Of a stretch of 64,000 bases of DNA, positions 6,107-49,713 are shown piece by piece. Positions within the stretch are counted from its first letter, which is position 1. Every line of letters starts with the position of its first letter. The translations under genes were made by a program, and so were the position numbers. The DNA is taken from the IMG/VR virus record IMGVR_UViG_3300009031_000368, positions 32,001 through 96,000 of that record; one strand, written 5' to 3'. Below the pieces are notes generated by a model that ran no database searches, had not been told where the DNA came from, and worked only from the letters and a program-made list of their open reading frames with translations. The DNA is from a virus. Lineage: Duplodnaviria > Caudoviricetes.

Positions 6107-6107
6107 A

Positions 6108-6694: not shown

Positions 6695-6696
6695 AG

Positions 6697-6829: not shown

Positions 6830-6861
6830 TCGCAATTTTTAATCAAATGATTAAAAACATC

Positions 6862-6890
6862 TTGACAAACCAGCTTTGACGTGTTATATT
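6862..6890 (+). promoter_or_regulatory. sigma70-type promoter, rightward (TTGACA-17-TATATT), divergent partner
   Basis: ttgaca at 6862-6867, tatatt at 6885-6890, TGn. Confidence 0.8.
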
Positions 6891-6927
6891 ATCGGCATGA
6901 TTTGGTTTTAACCGTGAAGGAACCGTT

Positions 6928-7158: not shown

Positions 7159-7174
7159 TTAAGGGGATTTAGCA

Positions 7175-8528: not shown

Positions 8529-8540
8529 GTTTTACCTCTG

Positions 8541-10200: not shown

Positions 10201-10210
10201 CGGTCATCTC

Positions 10211-14245: not shown

Positions 14246-14246
14246 T

Positions 14247-30910: not shown

Positions 30911-33322
30911 TTATGCCGTTTTCTGTGACAGGTTAAACACTACAAACTCAGCCGGCTTGTGTGGCGCAAATCCGACGTCGATATTGACAACACCTTGATC
31001 GATTGATTCCTGCGGATTATTGGTACCATCTACAACGATGAAAAATGCTTCATCCTCAGTCTTGCCGGCAAAATAATTGTTGTTAAACAAATTCTTCATA
31101 AAGCTTTCAAGCTGAAGCTTAATCCGGGTCCAAAGCTGCGGGCCATTGTTTTCAAAAGGAACCCAATGCATCGCGTTATAGATTGACTTACTGAGATACA
31201 TGTAAAGCATTCTTGCCTGAATGTATTTATACTCATCATTGACGTCAAGCGTCCTGGCTCCCCATACCGCCGTTCCGATCCTGGTTCGTTTAATGATGGC
31301 ATTCAATCCTACGTCATTGGCCGTTCCAACCTCGCCATCTAGCGCATTGGATTCAAGTCCCAGCAGGTAGGCCAATTGTCCATCTTCTTTACCGGCTGGT
31401 GCCTTTGAAACGTTCTTATTACTTATCGTTCTAGCATATACGCCAGCCACATGACCGATTGGTGGCACAGTCTTTGACTTTTCTGTCACTGGGTCTATGA
31501 CTCTTATCCATGGCCAATAGATGGCTGCATATGTTGACAGCTTATTGAGCGTATTCTTTTTATAATTGACTGCCTGTTGAACCGTCATACCTGATGGTGT
31601 AGCCAGGATTGCAAACCTGTCACCCTTATCTTCACAAAAATCAACAATGGCACCATCTACCGTTTCATCACCGGCAAAATCAGGCACAACGATCAGCAGG
31701 TTATCTTCAATGGCGTTGAATGCAAAGATACCCTTTCCATCCGCCTCAAGACTTGCTGATGTTACATCGCTTGACGAAACGGCTGAGCCATCATCGCCAC
31801 CAGCCATTGTAACCGTATAAGTTGTTTCGGCCGGCTGCTTCACGTAATCGATTGTAACATCACTATCGGCAAGTGGTGCAGTGCTTAACGTGAATGCATA
31901 CACGCCGGTATCGTAATCGATCGTATTGTCGCCCGAACTATCAACATCACCAATCAAATTGCCAGAGCCATCATCGGTAATTGAAAGTTCAGAACTATCG
32001 GCCGCCGTTGCCGTAATGGTAACCGAATACTTGACACAGCTAGCTTCCGCCAATGTCCCTGTAACTTCTGTCGATCCATCGCTGCCATCAACCAATACTT
32101 CACCACTCACAGCTGTTCCAGACAGTGTGGTCGGAACACTATCATCAAATGATGGTGTTTGAACTTCAATAAGCGCCGAACCATTATCCTCATCATTTAC
32201 AACGTTTGGGAAATAATCGGCATCGTCTGAATCGGTAAAGCTCATAGCCTTAAACGATTCCTTTTGATTCCATTTTGCCTTGCTGGCATCATATTCTTCA
32301 ACAATGACGTCATACCGTGAGAATGTCCCAAGTCCGATGTTTTCATAATTGGGATTACCGGAAATCTTCACTCTAACATTATCACCAGATGCACCGGGCC
32401 ATAACATCACTATACGCCACAATGCTTCCGTGTATGCTGACGATACGATACCAAGACTTTCATGCGTTTCAATAGTTGATGATGTTTTGAACGAATACGC
32501 GCCAGTATCGTAATCTATCGTGTTGGTGCCGCCATCGTCTACATCCCCTTCAAGACTGCCTAATCCATCATCGGTAATAGTACGTTCAATAAGCTGTCTA
32601 TATGTGACTGTAATAGTTGTCCCTGTTTTAACCGGAGCACCAGTTGTATCAAGCTCAAGAAGACCGTTTACATAATCAAACGTTGTATTGGCCGGTGCGC
32701 CATCGCCAGCCCATTCACCGGTTGAATCTGTTTGTGATTTAGCAACGTCCGCTGCGTTTACCCAGTTAATCGTGACACTGCCAGGCTTAACCGGCAATGA
32801 GGCAAACGGCAAAACGGCGCCTTCACCATCGTCTGAACCAACTGTTTTCCATAACACGATGATTCCGTTCGCCTCATTGCCATCTTCGATTTCTTCATCC
32901 TCTGTTTCAGCACCATCGCCATAATAGGTAATTGACAACGTCGATGGAACAGGCTTGCCGGTTAACGTTCCAGAAAATTGAGTCGTTGCACCGTCACCAA
33001 CTTCAATATTTTCTTCAGCGCCAGCATTTTTTACATATAACGAAGACTCTACCGCGTCATCAGGCGTAGTGCGAACCACGTAAGCCTTAGAACCGCCATT
33101 TTTAAGGAAAGTATACAGTGATAGTGGAACCAGTCCATCTGCGGTAAATGTACCGAATCGATCGACAAATTGTCCCCAACTCGAAACAAGTGTTGCCTCG
33201 TGGTGCGGCCCCTTGGTCGTCCATCCAGCTATTCCGAGAGTAGACGATGACACGCCTTGGATTGGAGATGGAGCACCTTTTTTCTCATTAACATAAACGC
33301 CAGGGTATGTTACTTGTGCCAT
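30911..33322 (-). CDS. tail sheath protein, 803 aa
   Basis: YPGVYV.E, F..NGG...YVVR, YAAIYWPW, PP.GHVAGVYAR, KAPAG, WGART, FAP.KPAEFV. Confidence 0.97.
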   Translation of the reverse strand: MAQVTYPGVYVNEKKGAPSPIQGVSSSTLGIAGWTTKGPHHEATLVSSWGQFVDRFGTFTADGLVPLSLYTFLKNGGSKAYVVRTTPDDAVESSLYVKNAGAEENIEVGDGATTQFSGTLTGKPVPSTLSITYYGDGAETEDEEIEDGNEANGIIVLWKTVGSDDGEGAVLPFASLPVKPGSVTINWVNAADVAKSQTDSTGEWAGDGAPANTTFDYVNGLLELDTTGAPVKTGTTITVTYRQLIERTITDDGLGSLEGDVDDGGTNTIDYDTGAYSFKTSSTIETHESLGIVSSAYTEALWRIVMLWPGASGDNVRVKISGNPNYENIGLGTFSRYDVIVEEYDASKAKWNQKESFKAMSFTDSDDADYFPNVVNDEDNGSALIEVQTPSFDDSVPTTLSGTAVSGEVLVDGSDGSTEVTGTLAEASCVKYSVTITATAADSSELSITDDGSGNLIGDVDSSGDNTIDYDTGVYAFTLSTAPLADSDVTIDYVKQPAETTYTVTMAGGDDGSAVSSSDVTSASLEADGKGIFAFNAIEDNLLIVVPDFAGDETVDGAIVDFCEDKGDRFAILATPSGMTVQQAVNYKKNTLNKLSTYAAIYWPWIRVIDPVTEKSKTVPPIGHVAGVYARTISNKNVSKAPAGKEDGQLAYLLGLESNALDGEVGTANDVGLNAIIKRTRIGTAVWGARTLDVNDEYKYIQARMLYMYLSKSIYNAMHWVPFENNGPQLWTRIKLQLESFMKNLFNNNYFAGKTEDEAFFIVVDGTNNPQESIDQGVVNIDVGFAPHKPAEFVVFNLSQKTA

Positions 33323-33549: not shown

Positions 33550-34245
33550 CTATGTGGTGCTAACTGTAAGGTCAACGGTTGTCGCAGCACTATATTCAAC
33601 GTCATCAAATATATCTATCTCGCCGAGAACTTTAACGGTGAAACTTACGCCGATATTTCTTTCAGCCACATTCATCAATTCGCTATTGCCGGTCGCTGAA
33701 TCCAAATACATGTCATACATTCGTTCTTCGTTAAGACTATCCATAACCGTCAATGAACCAAACTTTGGAAACTTCCTAGCCAGGAATACCTGCATTCTTA
33801 CCATATCTTCGCGCGTCGTAGCGGTTGCAATTATTTCATAATTGAAATCAAATGGCTGCGCGGCTTCACGCTGTTGGTATCTGGTAAACCCGGTAACTTC
33901 GACGCCAATACTATTTGTTACCGTTACCTGCTTGGATCCAGGTGCTGCCCACCTCCCACCGATTTGATTAGATCTAAAACGATCCATGGCAATCGATGGA
34001 ATGTCGGGTCTGATGGCAATGGATGGCAACAGATCGGGATAATACTTAACATCTACAGGTATGATTTTGACTGGTATTTTTTGATTGATTTCTTTTGGAC
34101 CAGTGACGCCGGGGATACTGACTGCGAACGAATAGAAGGTTTGGCCAGATTGTTTCCGACAAGTCTCAACAACTGAACCTAAATGTAGGATGATTCCTTT
34201 ATCAAAGCATTCTAAATCAACCTTTCCTGGTGCCGCCATTTGCAA
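33550..34245 (-). CDS. tail terminator / sheath stabiliser (gp15-like)
   Basis: QPFDFNYEI.A...EDM..M...+..KF; position upstream of the sheath. Confidence 0.55.
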   Translation of the reverse strand: MQMAAPGKVDLECFDKGIILHLGSVVETCRKQSGQTFYSFAVSIPGVTGPKEINQKIPVKIIPVDVKYYPDLLPSIAIRPDIPSIAMDRFRSNQIGGRWAAPGSKQVTVTNSIGVEVTGFTRYQQREAAQPFDFNYEIIATATTREDMVRMQVFLARKFPKFGSLTVMDSLNEERMYDMYLDSATGNSELMNVAERNIGVSFTVKVLGEIDIFDDVEYSAATTVDLTVSTT

Positions 34246-34633
34246 ACCTATCAGTTCTCTTTAACGTTCTTACGATTATTTTCTTACCTTGTGGTAACCT
34301 GCCTAAGTGTTGTCTGAATTCAGCGACAAGCGTATATCGTCCTTTGACAATCTTATTATAAGATACAAGGAAATCCATCTCCGGCTCTTTCCTTGCTATA
34401 AAGCGTCTTGATTCAATGCTGTTCAATTCATTGATCAAATCCACTACTGACTGCCGCTCAACACCCTTTCGGATATAAATGATATTCATACCGGCGATGA
34501 CGGCAACATCTTCAACGATTGGATTGTCTGCAATCAATTGCACCAGTATCCGCTTAAGTCGCCTTGCCTGGTTCATTATTTCAGACTCAATAACAAGATC
34601 ACGAACAGCCGTTAAACATTCTGTCAAATTCAT
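34217..34633 (-). CDS. putative internal head protein (L.AVRD leader); start corrected to MNLTECL
   Basis: ATGA overlap at 34630-34633. Confidence 0.6.
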   Translation of the reverse strand: MNLTECLTAVRDLVIESEIMNQARRLKRILVQLIADNPIVEDVAVIAGMNIIYIRKGVERQSVVDLINELNSIESRRFIARKEPEMDFLVSYNKIVKGRYTLVAEFRQHLGRLPQGKKIIVRTLKRTDRFANGGTRKG

Positions 34634-34935
34634 ATTCCACCTGTTCCATCTACAACGACATACCATCCATCATCAAGTTCTTGAATGCCGGTCGTTACTC
34701 CTTTAATGCTAAGACTACCATATATGTAATCGTCCAATCGCTCCGCCGTTCTTCTCGAATCGATCGGCCCAACCCTTATCAATTCAGACTTACGACTTAG
34801 ACCGATCGTCAATCCTCGAAGTTTTGACATCCTGGAAAGGATTCGATGCAATGAATCTATGTCGATAACTTGGTCTTCCAACAGGTAATCCTTCACGGCA
34901 TCTAGTTGCTCAAATAGCCTTGTATTGATCCTCAT
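34630..34935 (-). CDS. putative internal head protein (LDAVKDYLLE leader)
   Basis: Shared leader; TAATG coupling. Confidence 0.6.
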   Translation of the reverse strand: MRINTRLFEQLDAVKDYLLEDQVIDIDSLHRILSRMSKLRGLTIGLSRKSELIRVGPIDSRRTAERLDDYIYGSLSIKGVTTGIQELDDGWYVVVDGTGGI

Positions 34936-35711
34936 TACGATATGTCATCATCGACAACGACGACCCAACTATCGCCATTATTCCATTCTTGAACTCCGGC
35001 ATTTACATACTTATGCTTACTAAGTATGTATTTCATAATTTGGTTTGCGCGTCTTTCACTGTCCATCCATCCAATGACGATGACGTTTAATTCATCATTA
35101 ATACTGATGTCCCAACTTCGTAGCAGCGGATCCTGACTAAGTTCATGTCGAAGTTCTATCAAGTCGTTTCGCCGATGCCGTGATGAAATTGAACTTGATT
35201 CCGTCTGCCGTGGTGGTTCAATAACCCAGTACAGTGGTCGCGGGCCGGTTGGTGTTATTTCTGGATCTTGCTCAACCTTTGCAAAACCGCTAATGACAAG
35301 GCTTCCAACAGGGAACCGCTTCAGTGCATTACCATCCTTTACCTGAATAGGCTCTCCAAGTGTGGACACCTTCAGCTTCTCACTATCGTCAAAATAGCCC
35401 TTAACCACATTGATGGTTTTTCGTTTGGCATCAATCCATGCCGGCTTTCCACCAGTAAGCGCCAACTGTTTGATGATATTCCGCGGTATCTGCGCGGCAC
35501 CTATGATACCTTCCGATAGGATCGATTCACCCATTCGGCGCTTTCTTGCCTGTCTGGCTTGTTTATGTTTTTCTCTAACGGCCGAAACGATACCATGTGA
35601 CGCGGATTGTTCTTTAGTCTTTTTCTTGAATGGATTCCACCCCTCTTCAAGGTCATCCATTAAGAATTGTTTTACTGCTTCGAGTTGCCTGTTTACCACA
35701 TCATCACCCAT
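34935..35711 (-). CDS. putative internal head protein (LEAVKQFLM leader), multi-segment
   Basis: Shared leader; several LxE/xES sites. Confidence 0.6.
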   Translation of the reverse strand: MGDDVVNRQLEAVKQFLMDDLEEGWNPFKKKTKEQSASHGIVSAVREKHKQARQARKRRMGESILSEGIIGAAQIPRNIIKQLALTGGKPAWIDAKRKTINVVKGYFDDSEKLKVSTLGEPIQVKDGNALKRFPVGSLVISGFAKVEQDPEITPTGPRPLYWVIEPPRQTESSSISSRHRRNDLIELRHELSQDPLLRSWDISINDELNVIVIGWMDSERRANQIMKYILSKHKYVNAGVQEWNNGDSWVVVVDDDIS

Positions 35712-35717
35712 CTGTTA

Positions 35718-36611
35718 TTAAAAGTCAAACTCATCGAATTCAATCGACTCAGCTCTGGCCAACTGTTTCGCGCGTCCACGTTTTCCAGCTGCCGATAACT
35801 TATTGTGCCGCGCGGCTGACTTATCGGCTTTATCCTTTGTATCTTGTGCGTAGCTCTTGACGTTTTTCATCGTTACATCGAATCGCTTTGAATCAATCTC
35901 ACCACCTAGCGCCTTATCGCCGCGAACGTAATCGGCCTTACTGGATGAACCATGCGTTACCCGATTGGTATGGTTAAAGCGTCCTTTGGTGCGTCCAGGT
36001 TCAACTGAAGGCTCTGAACGAAGCGCCTTTTGAGGATTTGTCTTACTGGATTGACCACGAAGCCCCTTAGCACCAAGCGGCTTATCGGTATTTCGCTTAA
36101 TGGGATTATCTTTACCCTTTTTACGGGCAGCTCGTCCGCCAGGCTCACTCATCAAAACCTTTTTACCCGACTTAAAATAACTCTGTTCCCTGCCAAACGC
36201 CCAACTTGTTGCACGGCTTGGCTCAGAAAACATACCGGCTTCGTCATGGAATGGATTCGCCTCGTCAAGCTCATCTTCATCATATTGTTCAGATTCATCA
36301 AGATTTGGATCGTCTACCTGAATAACCCATCCGCCTTTCGACATTGCATGTACCGATGTCTCAGCACCATCTAACTCTCGCTCAATCGCACGAGCCGTAT
36401 ACTCCGCACTTTTCTTGCTAACAAAGCCGCTAGCCATAATTGAACGACCTGAAATAACGGATTCTATATCTTTATCATCGGATTCCTCTTCAACAACTTC
36501 TTGAACATCATCAAGGAAATCCTGAAGCTCACGACTCACCGCCTCCTCAAGATCTTCATGTTCACTAAGCAGGAAATCCCGCACATCGGTCAACCTATCG
36601 ATAAAACTCAT
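35718..36611 (-). CDS. putative internal head protein, acidic N-half and Lys/Arg-rich C-half
   Basis: Leader LTDVRDFLLSE; NPFHDEAG.F motif; basic tail. Confidence 0.6.
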   Translation of the reverse strand: MSFIDRLTDVRDFLLSEHEDLEEAVSRELQDFLDDVQEVVEEESDDKDIESVISGRSIMASGFVSKKSAEYTARAIERELDGAETSVHAMSKGGWVIQVDDPNLDESEQYDEDELDEANPFHDEAGMFSEPSRATSWAFGREQSYFKSGKKVLMSEPGGRAARKKGKDNPIKRNTDKPLGAKGLRGQSSKTNPQKALRSEPSVEPGRTKGRFNHTNRVTHGSSSKADYVRGDKALGGEIDSKRFDVTMKNVKSYAQDTKDKADKSAARHNKLSAAGKRGRAKQLARAESIEFDEFDF

Positions 36612-36628
36612 AACTCCTCCAAAACCTA

Positions 36629-37300
36629 TTAATAATTGTCGACAAGCGCCTGAGCCAGATGCTTGAGATATTTATTGACATCACCATTAACGAAATCAAT
36701 CCGGCGTATCATATTGGCGATACCGGTTTGTTCGTTCTTTGGTGCGCCGGCTATTGCTTCTATCACTACTTCATTGCTAATGATATGTGGCATCCCATCT
36801 TTTGACTTAAGTGTCCATTGCTGAAATGGAAGATCCTTCTCTTGAAAGAAGGTCTTCAAATAACGACTCATTCCTTTAAGATTAAGACTATCAAGGTCAA
36901 CACCAACAGATTCACTAACGATAGATTCTTCCCATGTATTTATCCGTCTAATGTTTCGTTCCGCTATTTCGTCTACCGCATCATCGATAACACTGTATAG
37001 GTTATCGTCTTGAACATCTTTTGTTACGTCAAGCTTCAGGATATCTCTACCTTTATTACTAATGGACAGTGGACGGACTTCATAAGTGTCTCGACCTGGC
37101 ATATATACGATAGATATCGCACCAATACGATGCCCATCAAGTTTGCTTTTTATATCGAATATCAGTCTATCTGATTCCGAATGTGTGATGCTATTAACGC
37201 CCCATCGCCGATATGCATTACTGTTTACTGCCAGTATTTGTGCTTCAATAGTTTTTGATATTTGTGACTCAAACAGTGAATTCATTATACGCTTCTTCAT
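36629..37300 (-). CDS. putative internal head protein (MKKRIMNSLFES leader), two domains
   Basis: Shared leader; internal WEESIVSES junction. Confidence 0.6.
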   Translation of the reverse strand: MKKRIMNSLFESQISKTIEAQILAVNSNAYRRWGVNSITHSESDRLIFDIKSKLDGHRIGAISIVYMPGRDTYEVRPLSISNKGRDILKLDVTKDVQDDNLYSVIDDAVDEIAERNIRRINTWEESIVSESVGVDLDSLNLKGMSRYLKTFFQEKDLPFQQWTLKSKDGMPHIISNEVVIEAIAGAPKNEQTGIANMIRRIDFVNGDVNKYLKHLAQALVDNY

Positions 37301-38076
37301 AATACCTTCTTTTCAAAATACTGTAGTTTTACGGTTGAATCTAACTGTATTTCATCGACATCAATCTTGAACCGCCAACCGCCATATGTTGGATCTGTCA
37401 ATGTCCGTTCAATACGCTTCAACAGTTTCGGCCTAGCGTCAAACAAATCATCAACGGCTGGCCGCCAATGTGGTTTTAACGCTTCACCGATACCGAATTC
37501 AGCTCTAAGAACCTGGAAAGCAAAATCCTTAACCGCTGACTGTCCGACATATCCGATCGGTGTTGTTGGGAAATCAATATCGGTTCCATTCCGCACAATA
37601 TCTGCGATTGACTTCCATTCCGATTTTATTCTATCGTTAAGAATATCGATTTCTCTAGCCGTTACATGACGAGACGTTGCTTTAAGATTCTCTGTCGGTC
37701 TAAATGGAACCAATCCAGCCGGCCATGGTGAGTAATCAACCAATATCTGTTCAATTACGCTTAACGGTCTAGCTTCAGATGTAAACGAGATAACGGTTTG
37801 ATTCACTGTTTGCTCGGTAATTGTTTCCAACATGTCGGCGTCAGATGTGACGATATATGCCGATGTTTCTTTTGCAATACGTTTAACTGTTATCGAATCA
37901 CCGTAACCTTCAAATTGTCCACCTGACGGCGCATAATGCGATACTCGTTCTGCCAGTATTCGAGCTGCCTCATAGGTAACCATATCGTTAGCCGCATTGA
38001 TGCGCTTCGGCAATTCATTCATGAATTTAAACAACAGCTTTGCATCACTGCCAAGCACAAATTCAAAATATTTCAT
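37297..38076 (-). CDS. tail completion / HK97 gp10-like protein
   Basis: A..LAE.V...AP and EFG...KPHWRPA; position between neck and tail. Confidence 0.4.
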   Translation of the reverse strand: MKYFEFVLGSDAKLLFKFMNELPKRINAANDMVTYEAARILAERVSHYAPSGGQFEGYGDSITVKRIAKETSAYIVTSDADMLETITEQTVNQTVISFTSEARPLSVIEQILVDYSPWPAGLVPFRPTENLKATSRHVTAREIDILNDRIKSEWKSIADIVRNGTDIDFPTTPIGYVGQSAVKDFAFQVLRAEFGIGEALKPHWRPAVDDLFDARPKLLKRIERTLTDPTYGGWRFKIDVDEIQLDSTVKLQYFEKKVL

Positions 38077-38438
38077 ACGCGAAACTGTATCTTCTTTTGT
38101 TGAAGTGTCTTGTATCCCTTCGGCTCAACGGAACGTCGCCAAAGGTTAAACTCATCAAAATGTTCACCACATACACCTATTATCGATTCAGAACCGCCGA
38201 CCTTAAGTCCAAATTCTGCCTCAATGCCACATCTAAAACATGTCGTTGTTCTAAGTTGTGTCGTCAATGGACCTTCGTATTGTGGAAAATCCATACCGCC
38301 CATCGGGCCGCGACATTCATTGCCAGTTAGTCCGGCTTCGCATGTTGAATTTCCAGCATCAATGGAACGCCATAATTTAAGGCACATGCTGCATGTGTGG
38401 CTAAAACCTTCTGCCATCAATTGTTTTGGATCAGCCAT
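38073..38438 (-). CDS. Cys-rich Zn-binding protein; start corrected to MADPKQ
   Basis: CSMC, CFRC, GVCGEH; ATG overlaps the end of the upstream ORF. Confidence 0.6.
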   Translation of the reverse strand: MADPKQLMAEGFSHTCSMCLKLWRSIDAGNSTCEAGLTGNECRGPMGGMDFPQYEGPLTTQLRTTTCFRCGIEAEFGLKVGGSESIIGVCGEHFDEFNLWRRSVEPKGYKTLQQKKIQFRV

Positions 38439-38964
38439 CCAGTATACGTCCTTTAATAATAGATTTTGCCACGACCGGACACTTGCCGATTTCGCGCAAT
38501 CGATTGCGTGGCAAGATGCCGGATTCAATCAATGCGGTAAATGCTGCACCTATCGCGCTTGACTCAATATCCATAAAGCGTGTTGCCGTTTCAGACAGTG
38601 TGCCGGTTATAAGCGCATTGTAGAAGTCGCGTGCAGTTTGATTGCCACAAGATAGATGTCGCTCGATAAGCTTGGTTCCTGTTTCAGTCTTATCCTCTCG
38701 GTACAGATCCATCTTGCGCATCACCGCGTCAACTGTTTTTCTACGCTCGTAATCGGACAACATTCCGAACAATACAAAGCTGTCCTTTAAGGCAACATAT
38801 AGCTTTTCCGGATCAGATAGTATGTCTTCATCCAATCCTTCTCGTTGTAGACTCTTGACGGCACGTACCGTAGCATGTAACCTGGTAGGAGATATGTTGC
38901 TATGTGTCTTGCGCCAATCGCGTCTTACCTGCGATCGTTCGGCTTCTTCTAATCGTAAAAACAT
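38431..38964 (-). CDS. hypothetical protein, 177 aa
   Basis: Packed ORF. Confidence 0.6.
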   Translation of the reverse strand: MFLRLEEAERSQVRRDWRKTHSNISPTRLHATVRAVKSLQREGLDEDILSDPEKLYVALKDSFVLFGMLSDYERRKTVDAVMRKMDLYREDKTETGTKLIERHLSCGNQTARDFYNALITGTLSETATRFMDIESSAIGAAFTALIESGILPRNRLREIGKCPVVAKSIIKGRILDG

Positions 38965-38965
38965 A

Positions 38966-39640
38966 TCACTCCTCTGATATCGGAATAAATTGAGAGCTGG
39001 TGTTCAACATCCTTGCCGGATCAAATTTTGTCGTCGATTCACATGTAAGGATTAACTCGATCCAATAATCGGTAAAGTCAATCGTTTTACCATAATTCAC
39101 ATCAGCTATTACAAAATAGTATGGACCTATTCGTTGACCGCCTGTTAAATCTTTCATTGACGTATTGCCAACATCAAGTATTTCAACAATGTCACCAGTC
39201 GCCGGCATTCTTATTTTCTCTTCTACAGGTACATCTATCATGCTGGCTTCACGCAACGATTGCCTCGGCACATTTATCATAAACATGCTGGCCGAATACT
39301 TGTTGCCGTTTTCATCGGTCATTGTTGTGATGATGTCAGATGGCTTTAGCTGATACAATCCACGAAGCCCATACGGGCCATCATAAACTGTTCCTGTTTC
39401 ACCGACCGTTTGATTATCGGTTGGCTGATTACCATAAAGCAACGATGATTCGATATAGGTTGGATTAAATCGCTTTGTTTGGTCAAGACAATATAAATTT
39501 ATAGCCGGCATCTTCACAATGGCACCACCAACTCCCATCCGCTCCATCTTTTTCAATACTTTTTCCGATGGAGGCCAATGTAGTTTGCCCATTGTGTTGC
39601 ACCGTATGGCAGAATGGTCACCAACAATGAAACCAATCAT
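38966..39640 (-). CDS. neck / head-closure protein (gp14-like)
   Basis: SLLYG, P.TGDIVEI, YFVI.DV beta pattern; downstream of the gp13-like gene. Confidence 0.45.
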   Translation of the reverse strand: MIGFIVGDHSAIRCNTMGKLHWPPSEKVLKKMERMGVGGAIVKMPAINLYCLDQTKRFNPTYIESSLLYGNQPTDNQTVGETGTVYDGPYGLRGLYQLKPSDIITTMTDENGNKYSASMFMINVPRQSLREASMIDVPVEEKIRMPATGDIVEILDVGNTSMKDLTGGQRIGPYYFVIADVNYGKTIDFTDYWIELILTCESTTKFDPARMLNTSSQFIPISEE

Positions 39641-39654
39641 TGCTGGTGAATCAA

Positions 39655-40020
39655 TTAAGTAGGCTCAGTTCGCTTTGGTCCAAGCACCAACAGGAACGTG
39701 TCGCCGGCCGCATTGTAATCGGCTGCTTCATTGGTAATCGTTAGACCATCGGCTGAGAGATCGAAGTTAGAACCTGGACGCCACAACAGCACGGCGGCCC
39801 CACTTGCGTCTCGCACAAATGCACCAATCACCGAAGTGACGGCAAAGTCAAGATCAATGTCTGCGCCGGTTGCCGGGCCGGAACCACTTAGATCAACAAG
39901 CTGAACGGAACGAAGGAAATCTGCCTCAAGCAGCTGGAAAGCCGAATCAACTTCATCCCTCAATTCGCTGGCACGAGTCGGATCGCCATAGCGGGATCCG
40001 ATAAAATACTTTGAACCCAT
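39655..40020 (-). CDS. hypothetical virion protein, 121 aa, beta-rich
   Basis: AGGAG RBS. Confidence 0.65.
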   Translation of the reverse strand: MGSKYFIGSRYGDPTRASELRDEVDSAFQLLEADFLRSVQLVDLSGSGPATGADIDLDFAVTSVIGAFVRDASGAAVLLWRPGSNFDLSADGLTITNEAADYNAAGDTFLLVLGPKRTEPT

Positions 40021-40038
40021 AAAATACTCCTTTTTGGA

Positions 40039-40323
40039 CTAAACTGTAATGTCCTTGAACAACTCTTTAAACTTTTCGTTTTTGCCTTTATTGTCGCGTT
40101 CAAATGAATGCTTCATGTTGCGCCTTGTCCCCTTTTGTGTCGACTTGGTGCCGCCATGTTTAAGATATCCATTCCTCTGAAGCGACTTCCTCGCTATATT
40201 AAACGCATGCTGCGTGGTTAACTTTTTATCCTTCTTAGATATAGCAACCGTAGCGTGCCGCAATAATGACGGAATATCGGCTAACGATGACTCACTGATA
40301 ACTATATCTAAACTGATAAACAT
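40039..40323 (-). CDS. basic protein, 94 aa, weakly ChaB-like
   Basis: HAFNIARKSLQRNG resembles RAYASAHAVLQRQG in 15492-16073. Confidence 0.5.
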   Translation of the reverse strand: MFISLDIVISESSLADIPSLLRHATVAISKKDKKLTTQHAFNIARKSLQRNGYLKHGGTKSTQKGTRRNMKHSFERDNKGKNEKFKELFKDITV

Positions 40324-40325
40324 TG

Positions 40326-40637
40326 TTAGCTCGATGCCATTCTTTTTGTTATCGCGGTAATGTCTGCAATATTCTTGCGAATCTCAGTCTCGTATATGCC
40401 TTGAATCTTATTCAACGCTGAAGCAATCATCGAAAGCTTTGCCGCAACTTCTTTACCATCAACGCGAGTCTCCACATACTGTGAGAATTCAATCATGCTG
40501 TTGACGTTGCCAAGCATCCCGGCCAACCGGCCATTGAGCTGAAACAGTAAGTCTACGACACTGTAGCTATCCAGATTCTTCTTTTTCTTTGCTTCTGTTA
40601 GTTCATCGAATACTGAACGCATTATTCTTTGCCGCAT
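40326..40637 (-). CDS. putative internal head protein (MRQRIMRSVF leader)
   Basis: Shared leader, then ELTEA. Confidence 0.6.
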   Translation of the reverse strand: MRQRIMRSVFDELTEAKKKKNLDSYSVVDLLFQLNGRLAGMLGNVNSMIEFSQYVETRVDGKEVAAKLSMIASALNKIQGIYETEIRKNIADITAITKRMASS

Positions 40638-40646
40638 AGTTAATTC

Positions 40647-40928
40647 CTAAAGTTGTTTGACTTTACTCGATATTGTGTCTATTAGATCAATGACCCCGTT
40701 TGTTCTATCATCAAATGCCTCAGCAATATTGGTAATTATATTATCTAAAGATCTTGTGCCGTACTGAATCGTTTTTATTAAGCCGGGCTGATCAGACGTA
40801 ACTTCTAGAGACTCGTTTTTAACGATTTCAGCCAAGTTCATCATTCTGACAATATTTTCGTATGTCACACCAGATAAAGCCTTAAGCAACTTAATATTGT
40901 TTTTTAGTTTATCGTTTATTGAATCCAT
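40647..40928 (-). CDS. hypothetical helical protein, 93 aa
   Basis: GGAG RBS. Confidence 0.6.
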   Translation of the reverse strand: MDSINDKLKNNIKLLKALSGVTYENIVRMMNLAEIVKNESLEVTSDQPGLIKTIQYGTRSLDNIITNIAEAFDDRTNGVIDLIDTISSKVKQL

Positions 40929-40958
40929 GTATCATCAACTCCAAACAAGTATATCGTA

Positions 40959-41513
40959 TTATCTACGGCTATGTCCTAAAACTTTTGTTCCGAATGTCTG
41001 AGCATACATCTGATCTGCCAATTCATTGATGCCGCCATCCTGCACAAACGCATCGATGACTTCACCTTCAGCATCCCAAACAGCCTGAATATCTTCTCTC
41101 AACGGACCATACGAAGCATCCCCGCTCACGCGGCCAGCAAACTCCTTAGCGTTTTTCAACATCTTTGACACGATGCGAAGTTCTGCAACGACTTCTGACA
41201 GTTTTGAATACGCGGCTCTTACGTTACGTTCTACTTCCTTTCGGGCTGCTTTCTCTCTTGCATTGAATTCCTCATCTGGTTCAAATGCCTCAACTGTTAA
41301 TCCGAGCTCTTTCCGCATGGCTTTTGCGGTATTTATGGCATCCTGCTTATCGTTGGTGTAATAGGTTTTGCCTTCATCACGCTTACCGTTACGCTTAACG
41401 ACAACGACCCAATCGCCAGAAGAATCTTTCTTCTGCCTCATGACTTCATATACATCTGCTGACGACTCAACCAATGAGTCTACCACTGCTTTCAATACAC
41501 GGTTACCGTTCAT
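40959..41513 (-). CDS. putative internal head protein, 184 aa
   Basis: Leader VLKAVVDSLVES; internal LTVEA. Confidence 0.55.
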   Translation of the reverse strand: MNGNRVLKAVVDSLVESSADVYEVMRQKKDSSGDWVVVVKRNGKRDEGKTYYTNDKQDAINTAKAMRKELGLTVEAFEPDEEFNAREKAARKEVERNVRAAYSKLSEVVAELRIVSKMLKNAKEFAGRVSGDASYGPLREDIQAVWDAEGEVIDAFVQDGGINELADQMYAQTFGTKVLGHSRR

Positions 41514-41516
41514 ACA

Positions 41517-42245
41517 TCATCCTATAATAAAACCAATTGGCTTCTGTTTCACTTCTTCCATAATGGTCATCATCTCTTCCTTCGCCTCTTCCAACAATGT
41601 CTGCCCATCGGCGATCTCTACATTATCCCCCGGACCTGGTAGATTTCCATACTTGCTTCTAATGCGTCCAAGCACCTTCTTAGCTTCCGCTTCAGCCCAA
41701 CGCAAATAATACAACTGTTCGCTTGGCGTCATGGCATCATAATCGATATCCTTCGACACATAACTGTAATGCACATATCCACCCGAAGATGCCGGTACAG
41801 CCATTGGATAGATACGGATCTTCCGCTCACTTCTTACGTATTCCCAATCACGCTCCGCGCCAAACACTCTAGCCGTCATTTCAATATGGTTCTGCATCTG
41901 ATAGATGTCACCAACTCCACCACCACGACCTGGCCTGAACAGTGTAGCCGGGATAGCCCTAGCGTCACTGAATGTTCCAGGATCAATCATAGCCAAGTAA
42001 TCGGTTGAGCGTCCACTTAGATTTACTTCCAATACCTGAGAACAATCATCGGCTACCGTTATTTCTCGCTCGCCTGAACCGTATTGTGTAACCGCTTCTT
42101 TGATGGTGCCAAACCATGTCAGAAACCATATGTCGGTATAATCTAAAGCGTCTTCAAAGTCATCGCCATCTAGCTCATCGCAGAAATCTCCACCGAGCCT
42201 ACGCTTGATTTTTCCGATGACACGTTCGCGGGTGAGCTTTTCCAT
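41517..42245 (-). CDS. neck / head-tail adaptor (T4 gp13-like)
   Basis: I.KIKRRLG....ELD.DD.EDA; A.AK..LGRIRSKY..+PGP...+...G..L..EA.EE. Confidence 0.8.
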   Translation of the reverse strand: MEKLTRERVIGKIKRRLGGDFCDELDGDDFEDALDYTDIWFLTWFGTIKEAVTQYGSGEREITVADDCSQVLEVNLSGRSTDYLAMIDPGTFSDARAIPATLFRPGRGGGVGDIYQMQNHIEMTARVFGAERDWEYVRSERKIRIYPMAVPASSGGYVHYSYVSKDIDYDAMTPSEQLYYLRWAEAEAKKVLGRIRSKYGNLPGPGDNVEIADGQTLLEEAKEEMMTIMEEVKQKPIGFIIG

Positions 42246-42246
42246 G

Positions 42247-42771
42247 TCAGGATTTTATCCTCGCGCCCGTCATGAATGCTTTATGGGTTGGACGGCCATT
42301 AATTTCCGCCAGTCCATCTTTGACAAGAAGCAACTTTGTCATATCGTCAAAGCCGTTCCATACGACGGATACCCATTGTCGATCTTTGTTTGTCGCAAAA
42401 TCTTTATCGGCATTGAATGCAGCCACATACCATCTATACTTCACATCTTCTGAAAGCTTTGTCTTACGTGAATCCCTTACAAAGTCCATAATGGCATCTG
42501 CGGCCATATCCCAATTCCTGGTATTGCTCATCCAATCTGGCGGTGTATTGCCATACCGGGCTGACTTGACAATCACGACTTTTATACCAAACTGTGCGGC
42601 TTGACGTCTCGCGAATTCCAATTCATCATCGGTGGCTGGACCGCCGTAATCGCTAAAGGCTTCCCAATCTGCTGAAAGCTTCATTGCCGGAATTCTAGTC
42701 TCTTGTAAAGGTGCCTGCTCAGCAAGAAAGTCTCGTATTGCCGTTATGTTTTCAATAAAGTCATTGTTCAT
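42247..42771 (-). CDS. putative internal head protein (ITAIRDFLAE leader)
   Basis: Shared leader. Confidence 0.6.
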   Translation of the reverse strand: MNNDFIENITAIRDFLAEQAPLQETRIPAMKLSADWEAFSDYGGPATDDELEFARRQAAQFGIKVVIVKSARYGNTPPDWMSNTRNWDMAADAIMDFVRDSRKTKLSEDVKYRWYVAAFNADKDFATNKDRQWVSVVWNGFDDMTKLLLVKDGLAEINGRPTHKAFMTGARIKS

Positions 42772-43579: not shown

Positions 43580-43909
43580 TCAAACAAGCTTTTTAATCGC
43601 AGCAACGGCTTGTTCTGCGGCCAATTGAATTTCCATTGATTGTCTGTCAATACTGGCAAGGATATTTCTCAATGCCTTTTTAGTATCGCGATCGGATCCT
43701 TCAATTTTTTCGTCTAAAGTTTCAATAAAACTATCAAGACTAGCCATGATACCTTTAAACTTAAATACCGCCATACCGACAAGAGCGCCGGCATTCAATT
43801 GAGTTGATTCTTTCATCAAATATCTGTATTGATTTTCATCAATCCGCATACATGCCTCATACAAAAATGGACCAGACGTCCAGCCTGATCCATCTGTTAT
43901 TGATATCAA
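43580..43909 (-). CDS. helical protein, paralog of 49250-49516 and 48819-49224
   Basis: MAVFKFKGIMASLDSF versus MSNFKLKGILANLDKF. Confidence 0.6.
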   Translation of the reverse strand: MISITDGSGWTSGPFLYEACMRIDENQYRYLMKESTQLNAGALVGMAVFKFKGIMASLDSFIETLDEKIEGSDRDTKKALRNILASIDRQSMEIQLAAEQAVAAIKKLV

Positions 43910-43955: not shown

Positions 43956-45455
43956 TTACGGCAGGGTGACGTCGATTACGCCATAGAATTCAGGACGCAA
44001 CAGCTTCTTAGCATATCGCATCTTGATTCCCTTACGCGCCGAGAAGTCGTCAGGATCCTCAAGGGTCTGAGTCAGCTTCATCGGAACGTATGGTGCATAC
44101 ACGTAACCTGAGTCCAGGTAACTCTGTCCCTTAAGACCAACCAGGATTGTAGTCTGGTTAGCCATCAGCGGATCGATATATACCATCATTCGGTTAAACA
44201 GTGTACCGACTGCCTGCACGCCGAAATCACTTGACATCGGGCCATAGCTTGGCTGACGAATATGGGTCTGCATACCGTCGCCACCATATGGATTCTGCAC
44301 ATTCTTGGCATAAACCAGCGGTGCAAAGTCACCATGAGTAGTCAGCTGTTGCATATACGCGGCAATCTTTGGCGAAGTAACGATCCAGTTGGCAGGTGCG
44401 CGCATCGAACCAGTATGGATTTGAGCCGACATGGTGCTGATAACGGTCAACAGACCACGGATTCGGTTAATCTCATTCGGATCATCGCCACCACCAAGGT
44501 CATAACTGTCGGTGTATGAAGCATTGCTGATCAGGTCATTGATGATTTCTCGATCAACTTCAAGCGCCATCTGATTACTGAAGATGGCAACCAGTTCCTG
44601 CTCAGCATCCAGTCCATACATGGACTTCATGTCTTCCTGAGCGGTTGAACTCCATCGCGCCCGCATGCGTCGTTCAGTCGCCTTCACAACCTCCATGCTG
44701 ATTTCGATGTTGATCTCAGGAACCTGATCGTTCATTTCATTGTTGTACCAATAGACGGCAACAATGGTTGCACCATCGGCTGGCGCATCGGTGAACTTCA
44801 GGTTACTGACTCGTCCAGTCGTATAGTTGACGGTTCCGGTACCGGCTCCACCGAATGAGCCAGAACCATCGTCGACAACAACCTGAGTAGAATCATCCGG
44901 GTTGGTTGCCGTAATGGTAACGCTGATACCATTGGTGCTATCCAGTGGTCGCACCGGCTTCCAATTGAGTGTCGCATTCAGTCCTAGACCAGCTCCACCG
45001 TAATTGGTACCATCACCTGTTCCGACTGACTCTTCATCAATCTTTTCAGACGAATAGTTGGCACTGAAGGTCTGGATAACCTTATCGCCAGCAGTAATGG
45101 AACCCTTGGTGGTCGCATACTTGGCTTCGTAATAGAACACGGCGCCGTATGGGCCAGTCATCGGCTGAATTGACACCAATTCGTTAGCAATCAGGTTGGG
45201 GAAAATTCGCCTAATGGCCGGGAACAGATACTTGGTATAGGTAGCAATATTGCCAGTCAAAGTATCTTCATTCAGTGCGCCACGCACGAAGTTATACTGA
45301 TTGTTTAACAGAATGGCGGTTGCATTCCGCTTGTGTGGATCCTTAATGTTGCCAACCAGTGGTGCCCAGTTGCGCACAACCCTATTGACCCAACTATCAT
45401 CCTGAATTGTCCCGCGCACATCTTCCTGCATGGGCTTTCGATTTCTTGCTTGCAT
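43956..45455 (-). CDS. major capsid protein (T4 gp23-like) with an inserted beta-domain
   Basis: A.ELVSIQPMTGP.G.VFY, A.ERRMRARWS..AQEDM..MYGLDAEQEL, E+DREII, YAPYVP, RYAK. Confidence 0.97.
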   Translation of the reverse strand: MQARNRKPMQEDVRGTIQDDSWVNRVVRNWAPLVGNIKDPHKRNATAILLNNQYNFVRGALNEDTLTGNIATYTKYLFPAIRRIFPNLIANELVSIQPMTGPYGAVFYYEAKYATTKGSITAGDKVIQTFSANYSSEKIDEESVGTGDGTNYGGAGLGLNATLNWKPVRPLDSTNGISVTITATNPDDSTQVVVDDGSGSFGGAGTGTVNYTTGRVSNLKFTDAPADGATIVAVYWYNNEMNDQVPEINIEISMEVVKATERRMRARWSSTAQEDMKSMYGLDAEQELVAIFSNQMALEVDREIINDLISNASYTDSYDLGGGDDPNEINRIRGLLTVISTMSAQIHTGSMRAPANWIVTSPKIAAYMQQLTTHGDFAPLVYAKNVQNPYGGDGMQTHIRQPSYGPMSSDFGVQAVGTLFNRMMVYIDPLMANQTTILVGLKGQSYLDSGYVYAPYVPMKLTQTLEDPDDFSARKGIKMRYAKKLLRPEFYGVIDVTLP

Positions 45456-45474: not shown

Positions 45475-48400
45475 TTAATCGTCAAGCCGGTCTGGAAATT
45501 GGACCGGATATGCACCTTTTCCGCCCGATTGTGCTATTAGCTCATCTAGCGGTGTTGATGTTGACTCTGTAAAACTTCTTCTTCCAAATGTGTCTTCTTC
45601 GACACTTCTTTCGTATCCTCTTCGCACACGCTCCCGCGCCTTCTCGGCCGCATACGGATCGTGTCTTGCATTTGAACTTTCTGCTAGAATTCTATCTATT
45701 TTTGATGAAGGTGCGCGTTCGCCGATAAGAGATGTTAATTTTTTACCATTTTTCATCTTATTGACGATTTCTGTTGCCCGGTTGGCACGCTCTTCAAGGA
45801 TTTCAACAGCACTCACATACTTTTGAAGTTCCCTTTCATACTGCTCCTTCATCTTTTCACTATTTTCCTTCAAAGCCTTAAGTCGTGAACCATACTTGCC
45901 TGATTCAATCTTTGCGCGTTCATGTTCTGCCGTCAATGCATTGATTCGGTCTTTTGATTCCGACAACAACTGCCTGGTTTCTGTAACTTCACCAGATAGT
46001 TTTAATGCTCTCGCCTCAGATTCAGTCAACCGCTTAACTTCGGCATTAAGACGATTCAATTCAATCTTTGAATCCCTTAAACAATCCTTACTGGCATCAA
46101 CGGTTGTCCTGGCTTCAGCCAATTCAGATCTAATGTTGGCAATATACTGGTCCTTGGCATCTACCAGTTTGGCCGTTTGGATTTCCACTTCCTTGAGGCG
46201 CTTAAGCTCACTGGATGATTCGGTCAGTAAATCCTTTAGACCTTGAACGCTTGCCGCAACTTCCGATACTTCGGCAAATTCGGCCTTCAACTGTTGGAAT
46301 CCTTCCAGCTGTGTCTTTGCCTTTTGAAGAATTCCACGAAGCTTTTCAACCTCTTCCGCCTTGGCTGATAACGATTCAATTTGATGCTTCAGTTCAATGT
46401 TCTCAACCGCAGCCGTATCGACAGGAATCTTGCCGATTTCCTTTGCCAGACGTTCTGCCAGTTCGTCAATCTCCGGTAATTGCATCGTATTAGTTACGCT
46501 TCCGGCAATTAAATCAACCATCGTGTCCTTGTTTTCATACATTGAAAACTTTTGAGCCAGATGATACTTGATGACTGCCCGTCGTCCAAATTCAACCGAT
46601 TCTGCCAGCTGATTCTTTGCGTCAGCCAGTTCGCATTCAATCCTGGCACCATTCTGCTGTTCACGCTTTACGCTGTTTTCCAAATCCTTAATGTATTCGT
46701 TGGAATCCTCTGAAAAGATGAATGGTCTGATCAGCTTAACGATACCTTCAATGGCCCGCTTAGCGCCAGCAACCGATGGATCTTCCAACATCGATTCACG
46801 CAGGTTGTCGGTCAGCTCATCCTTTGCCGCAACGACATCTTCAATCAATCGCCTGGCATAGATTTCCTTTATTCGCGACGTCTCGGTCCTTATCGCATTA
46901 CTGACCGCTTCCTCAACATCTGATTTGGAATACTGCTTATCGGTTACCGTTTGTTGAGTCGTTTCCAATAGGAACTTGTTGGCTTCCGGAATCGCGCGCT
47001 CAATCTCTTCAGAAATCGTTTTACCAATACGTTTCCTTACTTCCTCAACTGATGAACCGGCGATGCGCTCACTTTCAGCAAAAACATCCGGGTAAGCGGT
47101 TTTTGTGGCTGGATCGTAAACGACATCGAAGGTCATTAACCTGTAATCGTCACCAACAGATTCCGTTCCATCCTCAAGCTTGGTGGTAGATCCGTAACCG
47201 CGTGAACTGATACCAGGGTCTATGCCGGCTTCAATTAATCCAGTCAGAATCTTACCGGTTGGTGTTGGCAGAATTTCAGCTTCGCCGATGATTTCATTGC
47301 CTTCAATTCTTAAATCAGTGATGACGTGACTGACACGCTGAAGCCTTGTTTGCCCATCGCTGTTACCGGTCCAAAACGTATGGCCGTTTTGCTCCATGTA
47401 GAAGTTACCGTGATCAACCGATAGACAATAGATGCGACCAGCATGGTGCTCTTCTTCAATCTTCATGAATCTCTGATCAAGCCAAATGTGCTTGGAATTC
47501 GAGAAGTGCAACTGGTAAAGTGGCACCTTATTTTCTGCTTTGATGATCCTACCGGCGAATTCGTAATCACCATCAGGTTCAATGACAGAAATGCTACCAG
47601 CACGCCCAGTCTTAATCAAACACTCATGAAGGTCTTTTATAAGCTGCTCAGATACAGTGAAGACATCGTTCCTGATATTGGTGACATTTCCATGTCGTAC
47701 CGACTCAGCCTTCACTTCCTTAAACGTCTTTCCCGAATCTCTCCATTCACCATTAACCGTATGGTCATCGGTTCTGCTGTCAACAATTCTGCCATCACCG
47801 ATGGAAAACCAAAACAGCAATTCAGATAATGGACCCGGGCCTAGATTTTTGATCTCTGACGGAATATACTTATTGTAGCAGTCGCCAAGCGGCTTCAGAT
47901 AGTTGTAAAGCCTTGCGTCGTATGTCATATAACCGTCAGCATACTTACTCCATTGAATCTCAGGCGACATCTTGCTTAAGACTTCATCATAAATATACTT
48001 GGTTGACCATTCATTCTTTTGGCAAACAAACACAGCATATCCGCTATGGTTTTCCGACCTGCAACATCCTTCCGCGAGATAAATACCCATAAATGCTGCA
48101 AACACGTTTGCATCTATTACAAGGTCTTTTGACGCATCAGTTTTTGTTCCACGTAGTCCCTGTATGGCAGGCAACGTAAATGTTTTCGGTGATTCTGGAT
48201 TCCATTGAGCAGTTTTCGGAATTGCGGAATGACCATATGAAGCCCTGTTTGTAAAGATGGTTTCAGAAGTAACATACTCCTCAAACTCTCTCTTTTCACC
48301 AGGTCGTGTAACAAGAAGATTCCTGTGACCGGGAGTAAAAGTAGAATCGATACTCCTACCTTTAAAATGGTACACCGGTCCATCGTATGGCTCGTCGATG

Positions 48401-48759
48401 ATGGCATTCACGGTAGAGAGAACGGCTTTGCCATTTTTGCGGGACCAAGCCTTTTCACCTACGCCGATATCCCTGAACTTTTTCCACCCACTTTCAGTAA
48501 GTACTTGAAATTGTTCACTTTTCAGACAAGGATGGTCAAGTTCCCCCAGCAATTTCCTACCTTGCATTTTCTCTTCAAGTCGCTCCAATTCGCGCTTCCA
48601 GAGTGGTAACTCATATCGGCGATTGTTTTCGGTCGGCACACCGGCCAATGCGAACAATCCGCGCAGGTAGAGCTTCCTGTTACCATTGGCGGTAGCTTCA
48701 CCAAGCTCTGATTTGAATTTAAACGGAACAGTATCTATAAGAAGTCGTGGCTTTGTCAT
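45475..48759 (-). CDS. prohead protease (T4 gp21-like) with an intein, fused to a long coiled-coil scaffold; start at MTKPRLL
   Basis: N.N.R.Y, GELDHP, VSH.IT, G.AEIL.TP.G, GISSRGYGS, FDVVYDPA; heptad-rich C-half. Confidence 0.92.
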   Translation of the reverse strand: MTKPRLLIDTVPFKFKSELGEATANGNRKLYLRGLFALAGVPTENNRRYELPLWKRELERLEEKMQGRKLLGELDHPCLKSEQFQVLTESGWKKFRDIGVGEKAWSRKNGKAVLSTVNAIIDEPYDGPVYHFKGRSIDSTFTPGHRNLLVTRPGEKREFEEYVTSETIFTNRASYGHSAIPKTAQWNPESPKTFTLPAIQGLRGTKTDASKDLVIDANVFAAFMGIYLAEGCCRSENHSGYAVFVCQKNEWSTKYIYDEVLSKMSPEIQWSKYADGYMTYDARLYNYLKPLGDCYNKYIPSEIKNLGPGPLSELLFWFSIGDGRIVDSRTDDHTVNGEWRDSGKTFKEVKAESVRHGNVTNIRNDVFTVSEQLIKDLHECLIKTGRAGSISVIEPDGDYEFAGRIIKAENKVPLYQLHFSNSKHIWLDQRFMKIEEEHHAGRIYCLSVDHGNFYMEQNGHTFWTGNSDGQTRLQRVSHVITDLRIEGNEIIGEAEILPTPTGKILTGLIEAGIDPGISSRGYGSTTKLEDGTESVGDDYRLMTFDVVYDPATKTAYPDVFAESERIAGSSVEEVRKRIGKTISEEIERAIPEANKFLLETTQQTVTDKQYSKSDVEEAVSNAIRTETSRIKEIYARRLIEDVVAAKDELTDNLRESMLEDPSVAGAKRAIEGIVKLIRPFIFSEDSNEYIKDLENSVKREQQNGARIECELADAKNQLAESVEFGRRAVIKYHLAQKFSMYENKDTMVDLIAGSVTNTMQLPEIDELAERLAKEIGKIPVDTAAVENIELKHQIESLSAKAEEVEKLRGILQKAKTQLEGFQQLKAEFAEVSEVAASVQGLKDLLTESSSELKRLKEVEIQTAKLVDAKDQYIANIRSELAEARTTVDASKDCLRDSKIELNRLNAEVKRLTESEARALKLSGEVTETRQLLSESKDRINALTAEHERAKIESGKYGSRLKALKENSEKMKEQYERELQKYVSAVEILEERANRATEIVNKMKNGKKLTSLIGERAPSSKIDRILAESSNARHDPYAAEKARERVRRGYERSVEEDTFGRRSFTESTSTPLDELIAQSGGKGAYPVQFPDRLDD
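47362..48528 (-). mobile_element. intein, 389 aa, with LAGLIDADG homing endonuclease
   Basis: Starts Cys (CLKSEQFQVLT..GWK) and ends HGNFY....TFWTGN; +1 extein Ser; FMGIYLAEG and WFSIGDG motifs; excision restores HP|SDG. Confidence 0.93.
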
Positions 48760-48818
48760 ATTAATTTCCATATTTTTGCGCAAAATGTAACCTACAATCA
48801 CGCACTACATCTAACGAT

Positions 48819-49228: not shown

Positions 49229-49539
49229 TTACCACTTCATCCATTTGGACTATGATTTTAGATTTGATTCCATCTCTTTAAGTCCTTTTGAAATTACATC
49301 GTGTAGTTCGTCAAGGATATCCTTTAGAGTGTAAGACATTTTTCCCCTTCTAACCTTTGTGCTCATTTTTTGGTGAAATTTATCAAGGTTTGCGAGTATG
49401 CCTTTTAATTTAAAGTTTGACATCGCATAGATCTGTCCGTCTGAAATTGGTTTATTTCCAGATTCAGCTTCATAAATACTGTGCGACAGAATGTCCTCGA
49501 GATTTCTAAAGTTCATGCTATTTACCACTTCATCCATTT
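49229..49539 (-). repeat. 18-bp exact direct repeat AAATGGATGAAGTGGTAA upstream of both tandem paralogs
   Basis: Copies at 49229-49246 and 49522-49539, 4-5 nt before each ATG. Confidence 0.85.
49250..49516 (-). CDS. small helical protein, putative internal head protein; start corrected to MNFRNLED
   Basis: SIYEA then KPISDGQIYAM, shared with its neighbour. Confidence 0.65.
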   Translation of the reverse strand: MNFRNLEDILSHSIYEAESGNKPISDGQIYAMSNFKLKGILANLDKFHQKMSTKVRRGKMSYTLKDILDELHDVISKGLKEMESNLKS

Positions 49540-49713
49540 TGTCTTTGATGCAAAACTGGTACCGGCCAACGTTCTAGGTTTCTTTTTAACCTTTCGGTTA
49601 GTCTTATTGTCACGCCAGTACGGTTTCATCCATCTATAGAAGCCAATCTTTTCAAGGCGGCCAGATCTGTAATGTGTTCTGGCTCGCCTTGGTGCTTCGT
49701 TGATTAAAAACCC
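49522..49713 (-). CDS. predicted -1 frameshift extension of the scaffold (61-aa basic tail)
   Basis: G GGT TTT slippery site at 49707-49713 immediately before the TAA; the -1 frame is open to 49522. Confidence 0.6.
   Translation of the reverse strand, partial: GFLINEAPRRARTHYRSGRLEKIGFYRWMKPYWRDNKTNRKVKKKPRTLAGTSFASKTKWMKW

Follow-up and report, generated by a model that had tools for sequence, protein, structure and literature searches.

A conserved N-terminal leader on five small late proteins of an uncultured jumbo phage, most likely a local variant of the T4 capsid-targeting tag

Why should several small proteins of one phage, with bodies of different kinds, begin with a similar short helix? 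The question is raised by a 64,000-nucleotide stretch of DNA (the window), which covers bases 32001-96000 of the 231.7-kb contig IMGVR_UViG_3300009031_000368 of IMG/VR and belongs to an uncultured jumbo myophage of the T4 type from groundwater. Nearly all of the phage's genes are on the minus strand. The genes of interest lie in its late structural (head-to-tail) operon, transcribed in the order portal, two core proteins (49704-50627 and 50640-51503), protease-scaffold, capsid protein, about twenty small genes including a gp13-like adaptor, and sheath. Five of the encoded proteins, P0001 to P0005, carry at their N-terminus an acidic amphipathic helix of 16-20 residues with a net charge of 0 to -5, called here leader family 2. 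The leader is real, and it is most likely a local variant of the known tag that targets T4 proteins to the capsid.

A sequence-only reading of the window had quoted six such N-terminal peptides, one of them weaker. All six were found on the minus strand at the starts given for them (34633, 34935, 35711, 36611, 42771 and, for the weaker P0006, 41513), and four of the members are indeed consecutive genes. The pattern proposed for them, L.[AD][VI][RK][DQ][FYL]L.E, fits one protein only as it was written, whereas the core [AD][VI][RK][DQ][FYL][LV] fits all five strong cases. This core begins between residues 7 and 11, and in P0001, P0002, P0004 and P0005 the closing Glu falls at residues 16-20. 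In the 71,370-residue proteome the core was expected 0.37 times by composition and was observed six times, with five of the occurrences at N-termini (residues 7-20). Over 500 shuffles the proteome contained the core 0.35 times on average, and 0.054 times within the N-terminal 25 residues, where it never occurred more than once. The core was defined post hoc; the excess is nonetheless large. A hidden Markov model (HMM) of the six N-termini gave them scores of 20-25.5 bits, the next best of the 4,120 six-frame open reading frames (ORFs) reaching 7.7. With each sequence left out in turn, HMMER placed P0001 to P0005 at ranks 1-6 of the 4,120 ORFs; the same procedure with a BLOSUM profile, run on the N-termini of 367 proteins, gave rank 1 to P0001, P0002, P0004 and P0005, and rank 4 to both P0003 and P0006. 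By shuffles, HMM scores and leave-one-out ranks, the motif stands far above chance. The weaker sixth case did not hold up: P0006 fell to rank 318 in the HMMER test, and when all 65,434 positions were scored with a position-specific scoring matrix (PSSM) its value of 13.6 lay within the noise; on these two grounds it was ruled out as a member.

The best non-member in the proteome was a 413-residue protein with two P-loops, located outside the structural module (63014-64255, past the window end at 64000; L093 2015-3256). Its leader-like residues 14-30 end in V-L-K-Q-F-V-M-E-E-E and obtained a PSSM score of 23.8, the maxima in shuffled proteomes being 20-23. On sequence, this double-P-loop ATPase would be a borderline additional member. 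An ORF of 179 residues outside the window (genome 109073-109612; L094 3074-3613) shows L-S-D-L-R-E-Y-L-M-S-D near its N-terminus, comparable to the P0004 leader; its score of 19.2 was inside the shuffled-proteome range.

The codons of the leaders showed synonymous differences throughout and the DNA upstream of the genes was not conserved, which indicates conservation and selection at the level of the peptide. An element acting in the RNA or the DNA was rejected for the same two reasons.

In phage T4, the internal proteins IPII and IPIII bear the capsid targeting sequence (CTS) MKTYQEFIAE and are basic (PMC8442874). The CTS is removed by the prohead protease gp21 (Mullaney and Black 1996, as reviewed in PMC9026906). 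Its residues 4 and 7 direct targeting and its residues 8 and 10 processing, and an Asp at position 10 blocks cleavage while still allowing targeting (PMC9026906). In the alignment of the family 2 leaders, V/I occupied column 9 (position -6), F/Y/L column 12 (-3), L/V position -2 and Glu column 15 (position 0), a spacing that holds in all five members. Tyr4, Phe7, Ile8 and Glu10 of T4 correspond to the columns -6, -3, -2 and 0, and the likeness is most easily seen between R-D-F-L-A-E of P0005 and Q-E-F-I-A-E of T4. In both phages the element is a short helix at the extreme N-terminus, carried by small, partly basic and poorly conserved accessory proteins; in the present phage the isoelectric point (pI) of several bodies is 8.1-10.6. 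The Gp23-type capsid protein, the T4-type portal and the S77 protease are also present here (Table 1). Unlike the ten-residue CTS, the family 2 leader is longer by a turn at its N-terminus and has A-V-R/K-D as a conserved core; it has no sequence homology to the CTS, its genes are located among neck genes, two members have no Glu at the aligned position, and its packaging and cleavage are predictions.

The T4-type head proteins, the S77 protease and the matching spacing make a T4-style capsid-targeting propeptide the best reading of the leader. It would be a lineage-specific variant removed by the S77 protease, and we give this reading about even chances. The sequence-only reading had proposed a targeting helix, and what stands of that proposal is that proteins of the late structural module, in a phage with a T4-type head, share a distinct and conserved amphipathic helix at the N-terminus, and that this helix ends in hydrophobic-[LV]-x-Glu, which resembles the sites of T4 gp21, with the spacing of the CTS. 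We propose that during prohead assembly each protein is docked by its acidic helix on the scaffolding core, with V/I and F/Y possibly serving as targeting contacts as Tyr4 and Phe7 do in T4. After assembly of the shell, the S77 (gp21-type) protease, presumed to be the enzyme that removes the leaders, would cut behind the closing [LV]-x-Glu. The leader would then exit the capsid and the mostly basic cargo would remain inside with the DNA.

The ends of the leaders can be compared with the T4 site rule, which may not be the rule of this protease: P0002, P0004 and P0005 end in L-x-E and P0001 in V-I-E, and P0003 has an Asp followed by L-E-E four residues on. In the capsid protein a candidate maturation site, L61-N-E63 (45267-45275), is located approximately 15 residues downstream of the aligned mature T4 N-terminus; in 25 relatives E63 does not vary and L61 reaches at least 90% conservation. 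Within the protease fusion, which has an intein-free ortholog in L003, the scaffold part was enriched in [LI]-x-E (21 observed, 11.4 expected, p 0.004), an excess to which coiled-coil periodicity could contribute. At the N-termini of the protease-scaffold proteins (48700-48801 in the window, and the genes of the relatives), L-L-I-E/D was observed near the start, Asp being the residue in this phage; it may be compared with the LIE-9 site noted for T4 gp21.

Several observations weigh against the propeptide. At the aligned Glu position P0003 has Asp and P0004 has Ser, and the single leader recovered from a relative (L003, described below) ends in Q-D, with M-D-E seven residues on. The gp13-like adaptor gene adjoins those of P0005 and P0006, which places the leader genes among neck genes, between capsid and sheath and away from the scaffold genes. 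Among proteins of the structural module, hydrophobic-[LIV]-x-E in the N-terminal 30 residues shows only a mild enrichment (9/39 proteins versus 30/332, p 0.012). Three of the five members being paralogs, their similarity may partly be due to shared descent, and since no relatives of the family were seen beyond one phage, the comparative support is thin.

Table 1. Genes of the leader-bearing proteins and of the head and tail machinery, in window coordinates
Feature	Coordinates	Strand	Remarks
P0001, 138 aa	34217..34633	-	leader residues 1-16 (34586-34633), ends L-V-I-E; basic body, pI 10.6, unrelated to the shared domain
P0002, 101 aa	34630..34935	-	leader 1-20 (34876-34935), ends Y-L-L-E; alpha/beta domain 22-101 (34633-34872)
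P0003, 258 aa	34935..35711	-	leader 1-19; Asp replaces Glu, L-E-E four residues on
P0004, 297 aa	35718..36611	-	leader 1-17 (36561-36611), ends L-L-S-E; acidic alpha/beta domain 25-108
P0005, 174 aa	42247..42771	-	leader 1-18 (42718-42771), ends F-L-A-E; body without detectable relative
P0006, 184 aa	40959..41513	-	weak leader-like N-terminus ending L-V-E; small domain matches phrog_7884
Leader family 1 protein, 103 aa	40326..40637	-	body matches C-terminus of the L003 524-residue protein
T4-type portal	51559-53292	-	Portal_T4, E 2e-60
Prohead protease, Peptidase_S77 (T4 gp21 type)	45475..48801	-	E 4e-17; intein-interrupted, fused to long coiled-coil scaffold
Major capsid protein, Gp23 family	43956..45455	-	E 4e-66
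gp13-like head-tail adaptor	41517..42245	-	conserved neighbour of P0005 and P0006
Tail sheath	30911-33322	-	transcribed after the small genes

The bodies behind the leaders had been taken as unrelated, which was an overstatement, as three of the four consecutive genes (P0002, P0003 and P0004) are paralogs with a common alpha/beta domain of about 80 residues. P0002 matched residues 183-254 of P0003 at 35% identity over 74 residues (E 1e-8), and residues 25-108 of P0004 correspond to the same domain as P0002 and residues 179-258 of P0003 (34938-35177). P0003 also contains a basic stretch at residues 24-70 (pI 11.1). In P0004 a conserved L-D-E117 (36261-36269) directly precedes A-N-P-F-H, and residues 118-297 form a basic C-terminal tail (pI 10.2). 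HMM and profile-profile comparisons detected no relation of the bodies of P0001, P0005 and P0006 to the alpha/beta domain (hhalign probability <1% for P0001 and P0005), so that the leader is found on at least three types of body. The genes lie close together or overlap. The start of P0001 was placed at 34633, where ATGA overlaps the upstream stop, in preference to a longer ORF from 34666.

The alpha/beta domain, modelled from five sequences with a predicted local distance difference test (pLDDT) score of 90.6, is a two-layer sandwich with the order alpha-beta-beta-alpha-beta-beta; the full-length P0002 model was of low confidence (pLDDT 62). Comparison of the domain model with known structures gave no specific relative, the best match in the Protein Data Bank (PDB) being YajQ at a template modelling (TM) score of 0.51, no viral match at E <= 0.001, and no resemblance to known decoration folds such as fibre or Ig-like ones. 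Searches of Pfam and PHROGs with the five strong members found no significant family, head and ejection proteins included. Homolog searches with P0003 and P0005 returned only the queries themselves or nothing, the family HMMER profile recovered only the phage's own four proteins among 1.84 billion representative proteins, and a look-up of P0005 in the ESM Atlas yielded nothing usable.

With three paralogs in a row, the shared N-terminus might be a mere remnant of tandem duplication, with no role of its own. The run of four consecutive members, the domain common to three of them and the confinement of the family to this lineage are all in keeping with such an origin. The leader is, however, better conserved than what follows it: between P0002 and P0003, 7/12 leader residues are identical (58%) as compared to 35% in the domain. 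The leaders of P0004 and P0005 are 48% identical over 21 residues, and no similarity could be detected between their bodies. P0005, with its unrelated body, is encoded 6 kb from the four-gene array. In addition, the leader codons have fully diverged, and the motif never leaves the extreme N-terminus, whatever shuffling of domains takes place behind it. We consider a simple duplication remnant distinctly unlikely.

The shuffling was seen on comparison with the relatives. Homologs of the capsid protein led to three near relatives, L003, L004 and L005, with 70%, 59% and 55% capsid identity, respectively. A capsid alignment search added 80 further loci at 43-50% capsid identity, none of which showed the motif at an N-terminus. 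A metagenome scan contributed only one more close relative, the contig of which ends inside the capsid gene, and single-protein scans of viral contigs with the adaptor or the capsid protein gave no matches. The interval from capsid to sheath contains a conserved backbone of about ten genes, and all the family 2 genes occupy variable positions within it; the P0005 gene, for example, is inserted between two genes that are kept in the relatives. The only N-terminal match to the leader in the relatives' loci was on a 133-residue protein of L003 (17943-18344), an ortholog of the conserved core of P0004 with 41% identity. In the L003 protein the core follows immediately on the leader, whereas in P0004 an alpha/beta domain separates the two. 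In L004 and L005 the P0004-core protein is present without a family 2 leader. As far as sequence comparison tells, the family 2 motif is found only in this phage and in L003. The set of presumptive cargo genes is lineage-specific and recently expanded, being made of a tandem array of three alpha/beta paralogs and two tagged unrelated bodies.

The P0004 family showed a further regularity. In four phages (36261-36269 in the window; 17943-18344 in L003; 13334-13747 in L004; 13499-13927 in L005) an invariant Glu, with L/M/V two residues earlier, stands directly before an invariant N-P-x-H, and the residues after the Glu follow the pattern [AD]NP[FWY]H. This hydrophobic-x-Glu is a candidate internal maturation site; cleavage there would remove a variable, acidic N-terminal part and leave a basic C-terminal protein free.

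Beside its gp13-like adaptor gene, L003 encodes a protein of 524 residues (13009-14583) in which the alpha/beta domain occurs two or three times in tandem. Its C-terminal module matches the body of the 103-residue family 1 protein (40326-40637) with an E value of 1e-10, and the stretch aligned to the family 1 leader ends in L-S-E-G. Judging from these matches, the protein is a fused form of genes that are separately tagged in the present phage. From the comparison with L003 one can also see the evolution of such cargo genes: domains are shuffled, and proteins fuse or split, while the N-terminal tag in front of them stays fixed. The scaffolds of the relatives contain a stretch like L-D-Q-V-K-D-L-V-R-P-F, in which a source or a mimic of the leader might be seen; the scaffold of this phage has no match at that place, and the stretch was therefore treated as a coincidence.

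The neck location and the L003 protein also bear on a different function. Variable fibre or decoration proteins are attached through conserved N-terminal anchors, and the leader could similarly be a permanent docking helix, never removed, by which accessory proteins attach to one common site on the neck, the collar or the exterior of the capsid. The leader genes are among neck genes, next to the gp13-like adaptor; the tandem alpha/beta copies of the 524-residue protein, encoded downstream of the adaptor, suggest by their repetition an exposed decoration or fibre; and the conservation of the polar A-V-R-D core points to a specific partner rather than to generic amphipathicity. A helix of 15 residues would nevertheless be a small anchor, and such an anchor has no reason to close with hydrophobic-[LV]-x-Glu or to keep the spacing of the T4 CTS. 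The basic, low-complexity segments of P0004 (118-297) and P0003 (24-70) are closer in appearance to internal proteins that associate with DNA, and the alpha/beta fold, with YajQ as its closest match, offers no functional lead. We regard a permanent docking helix as unlikely, although it is the strongest of the rivals.

The helix might also be a binding tag for some other late process, recognised for instance by an assembly chaperone or a regulator and unrelated to the interior of the capsid. The capsid location of the leader proteins is a prediction, which leaves room for such a role, and the borderline leader-like N-terminus of the double-P-loop ATPase (63014-64255) occurs outside the structural module. 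No candidate partner was found, however, the five strong members are all encoded in the late head-to-tail operon, and the ending that resembles a protease site would be left without explanation. We judge this role distinctly improbable.

The phage has another leader, family 1, with the pattern M-K/R-Q/K-R-I-M-R/N-S-...-E, and the sequence-only reading had suggested from the pair that proteins are sorted into the prohead by two routes, for instance core-bound versus portal-bound. The two families occur in the same operons, on small accessory proteins of one kind, and share a C-terminal core, three of the four family 1 leaders ending in the hydrophobic-[LV]-x-Glu core of family 2. They differ in their N-terminal half, which is basic in family 1 and acidic in family 2. 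Family 1 also resembles a leader that is apparently widespread in the phage group, whereas only this phage and L003 have family 2. Two routes find no support, given the common ending and the 524-residue L003 protein, in which a family 2 domain and a family 1 body are joined, and the fusion argues for a single destination. It could still be imagined that family 2 is a longer, sequence-specific address, in which the A-V-R/K-D turn placed before a T4-like core docks on another prohead component than the basic family 1 leader. Two sets of cargo would then be sorted by place or time, and new cargo genes would arise from split multi-domain proteins, like the L003 fusion, each gaining a tag. This elaboration appears rather improbable to us.

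In L002 (LR756508.1), a related uncultured phage of 484 kb, at least nine genes around the capsid gene (approximately 400-10800 and 35500-39200) start with M-K-..-E-.-K-L-R-.-I/V-I/V-K/R-E-E. This start resembles family 1 and suggests that the leader type is widespread in the phage group.

A second system offers a comparison for the tandem paralogs. The SPN3US paralogs gp53 and gp54 have an identical cleaved N-terminus of 15 residues, while only 34% identity remains between their bodies (PMC5694885). Together with phiKZ gp93, they resemble the present genes in being tandem paralogs with a similar N-terminus of 15-20 residues, a protease motif in it and diverging bodies. They differ in the A/S/G-x-E motif, in much longer propeptides and in processing that was proven by mass spectrometry (PMC5694885). 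The family 2 tag, unlike theirs, is also found on non-paralogous bodies, and it has no sequence homology to those families.

If the leader is indeed a capsid-targeting tag, it marks lineage-specific proteins that are carried into the host with the phage DNA. Cargo of this kind is often counter-defence equipment. A second, longer tag sharing only the spacing of the T4 determinants would help to define the minimal T4-type targeting signal, and it could serve for the loading of foreign proteins into capsids. The targeting propeptide mechanism is textbook T4 biology, and the gain is incremental in this respect.

Two small paralogous genes flank the protease and capsid genes (43580-43909 and 49250-49537), their products being 41% identical over 29 residues (E 5e-7). 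Both products show hydrophobic-[LI]-Y-E-A near the N-terminus, the TTG start of the first one being uncertain.

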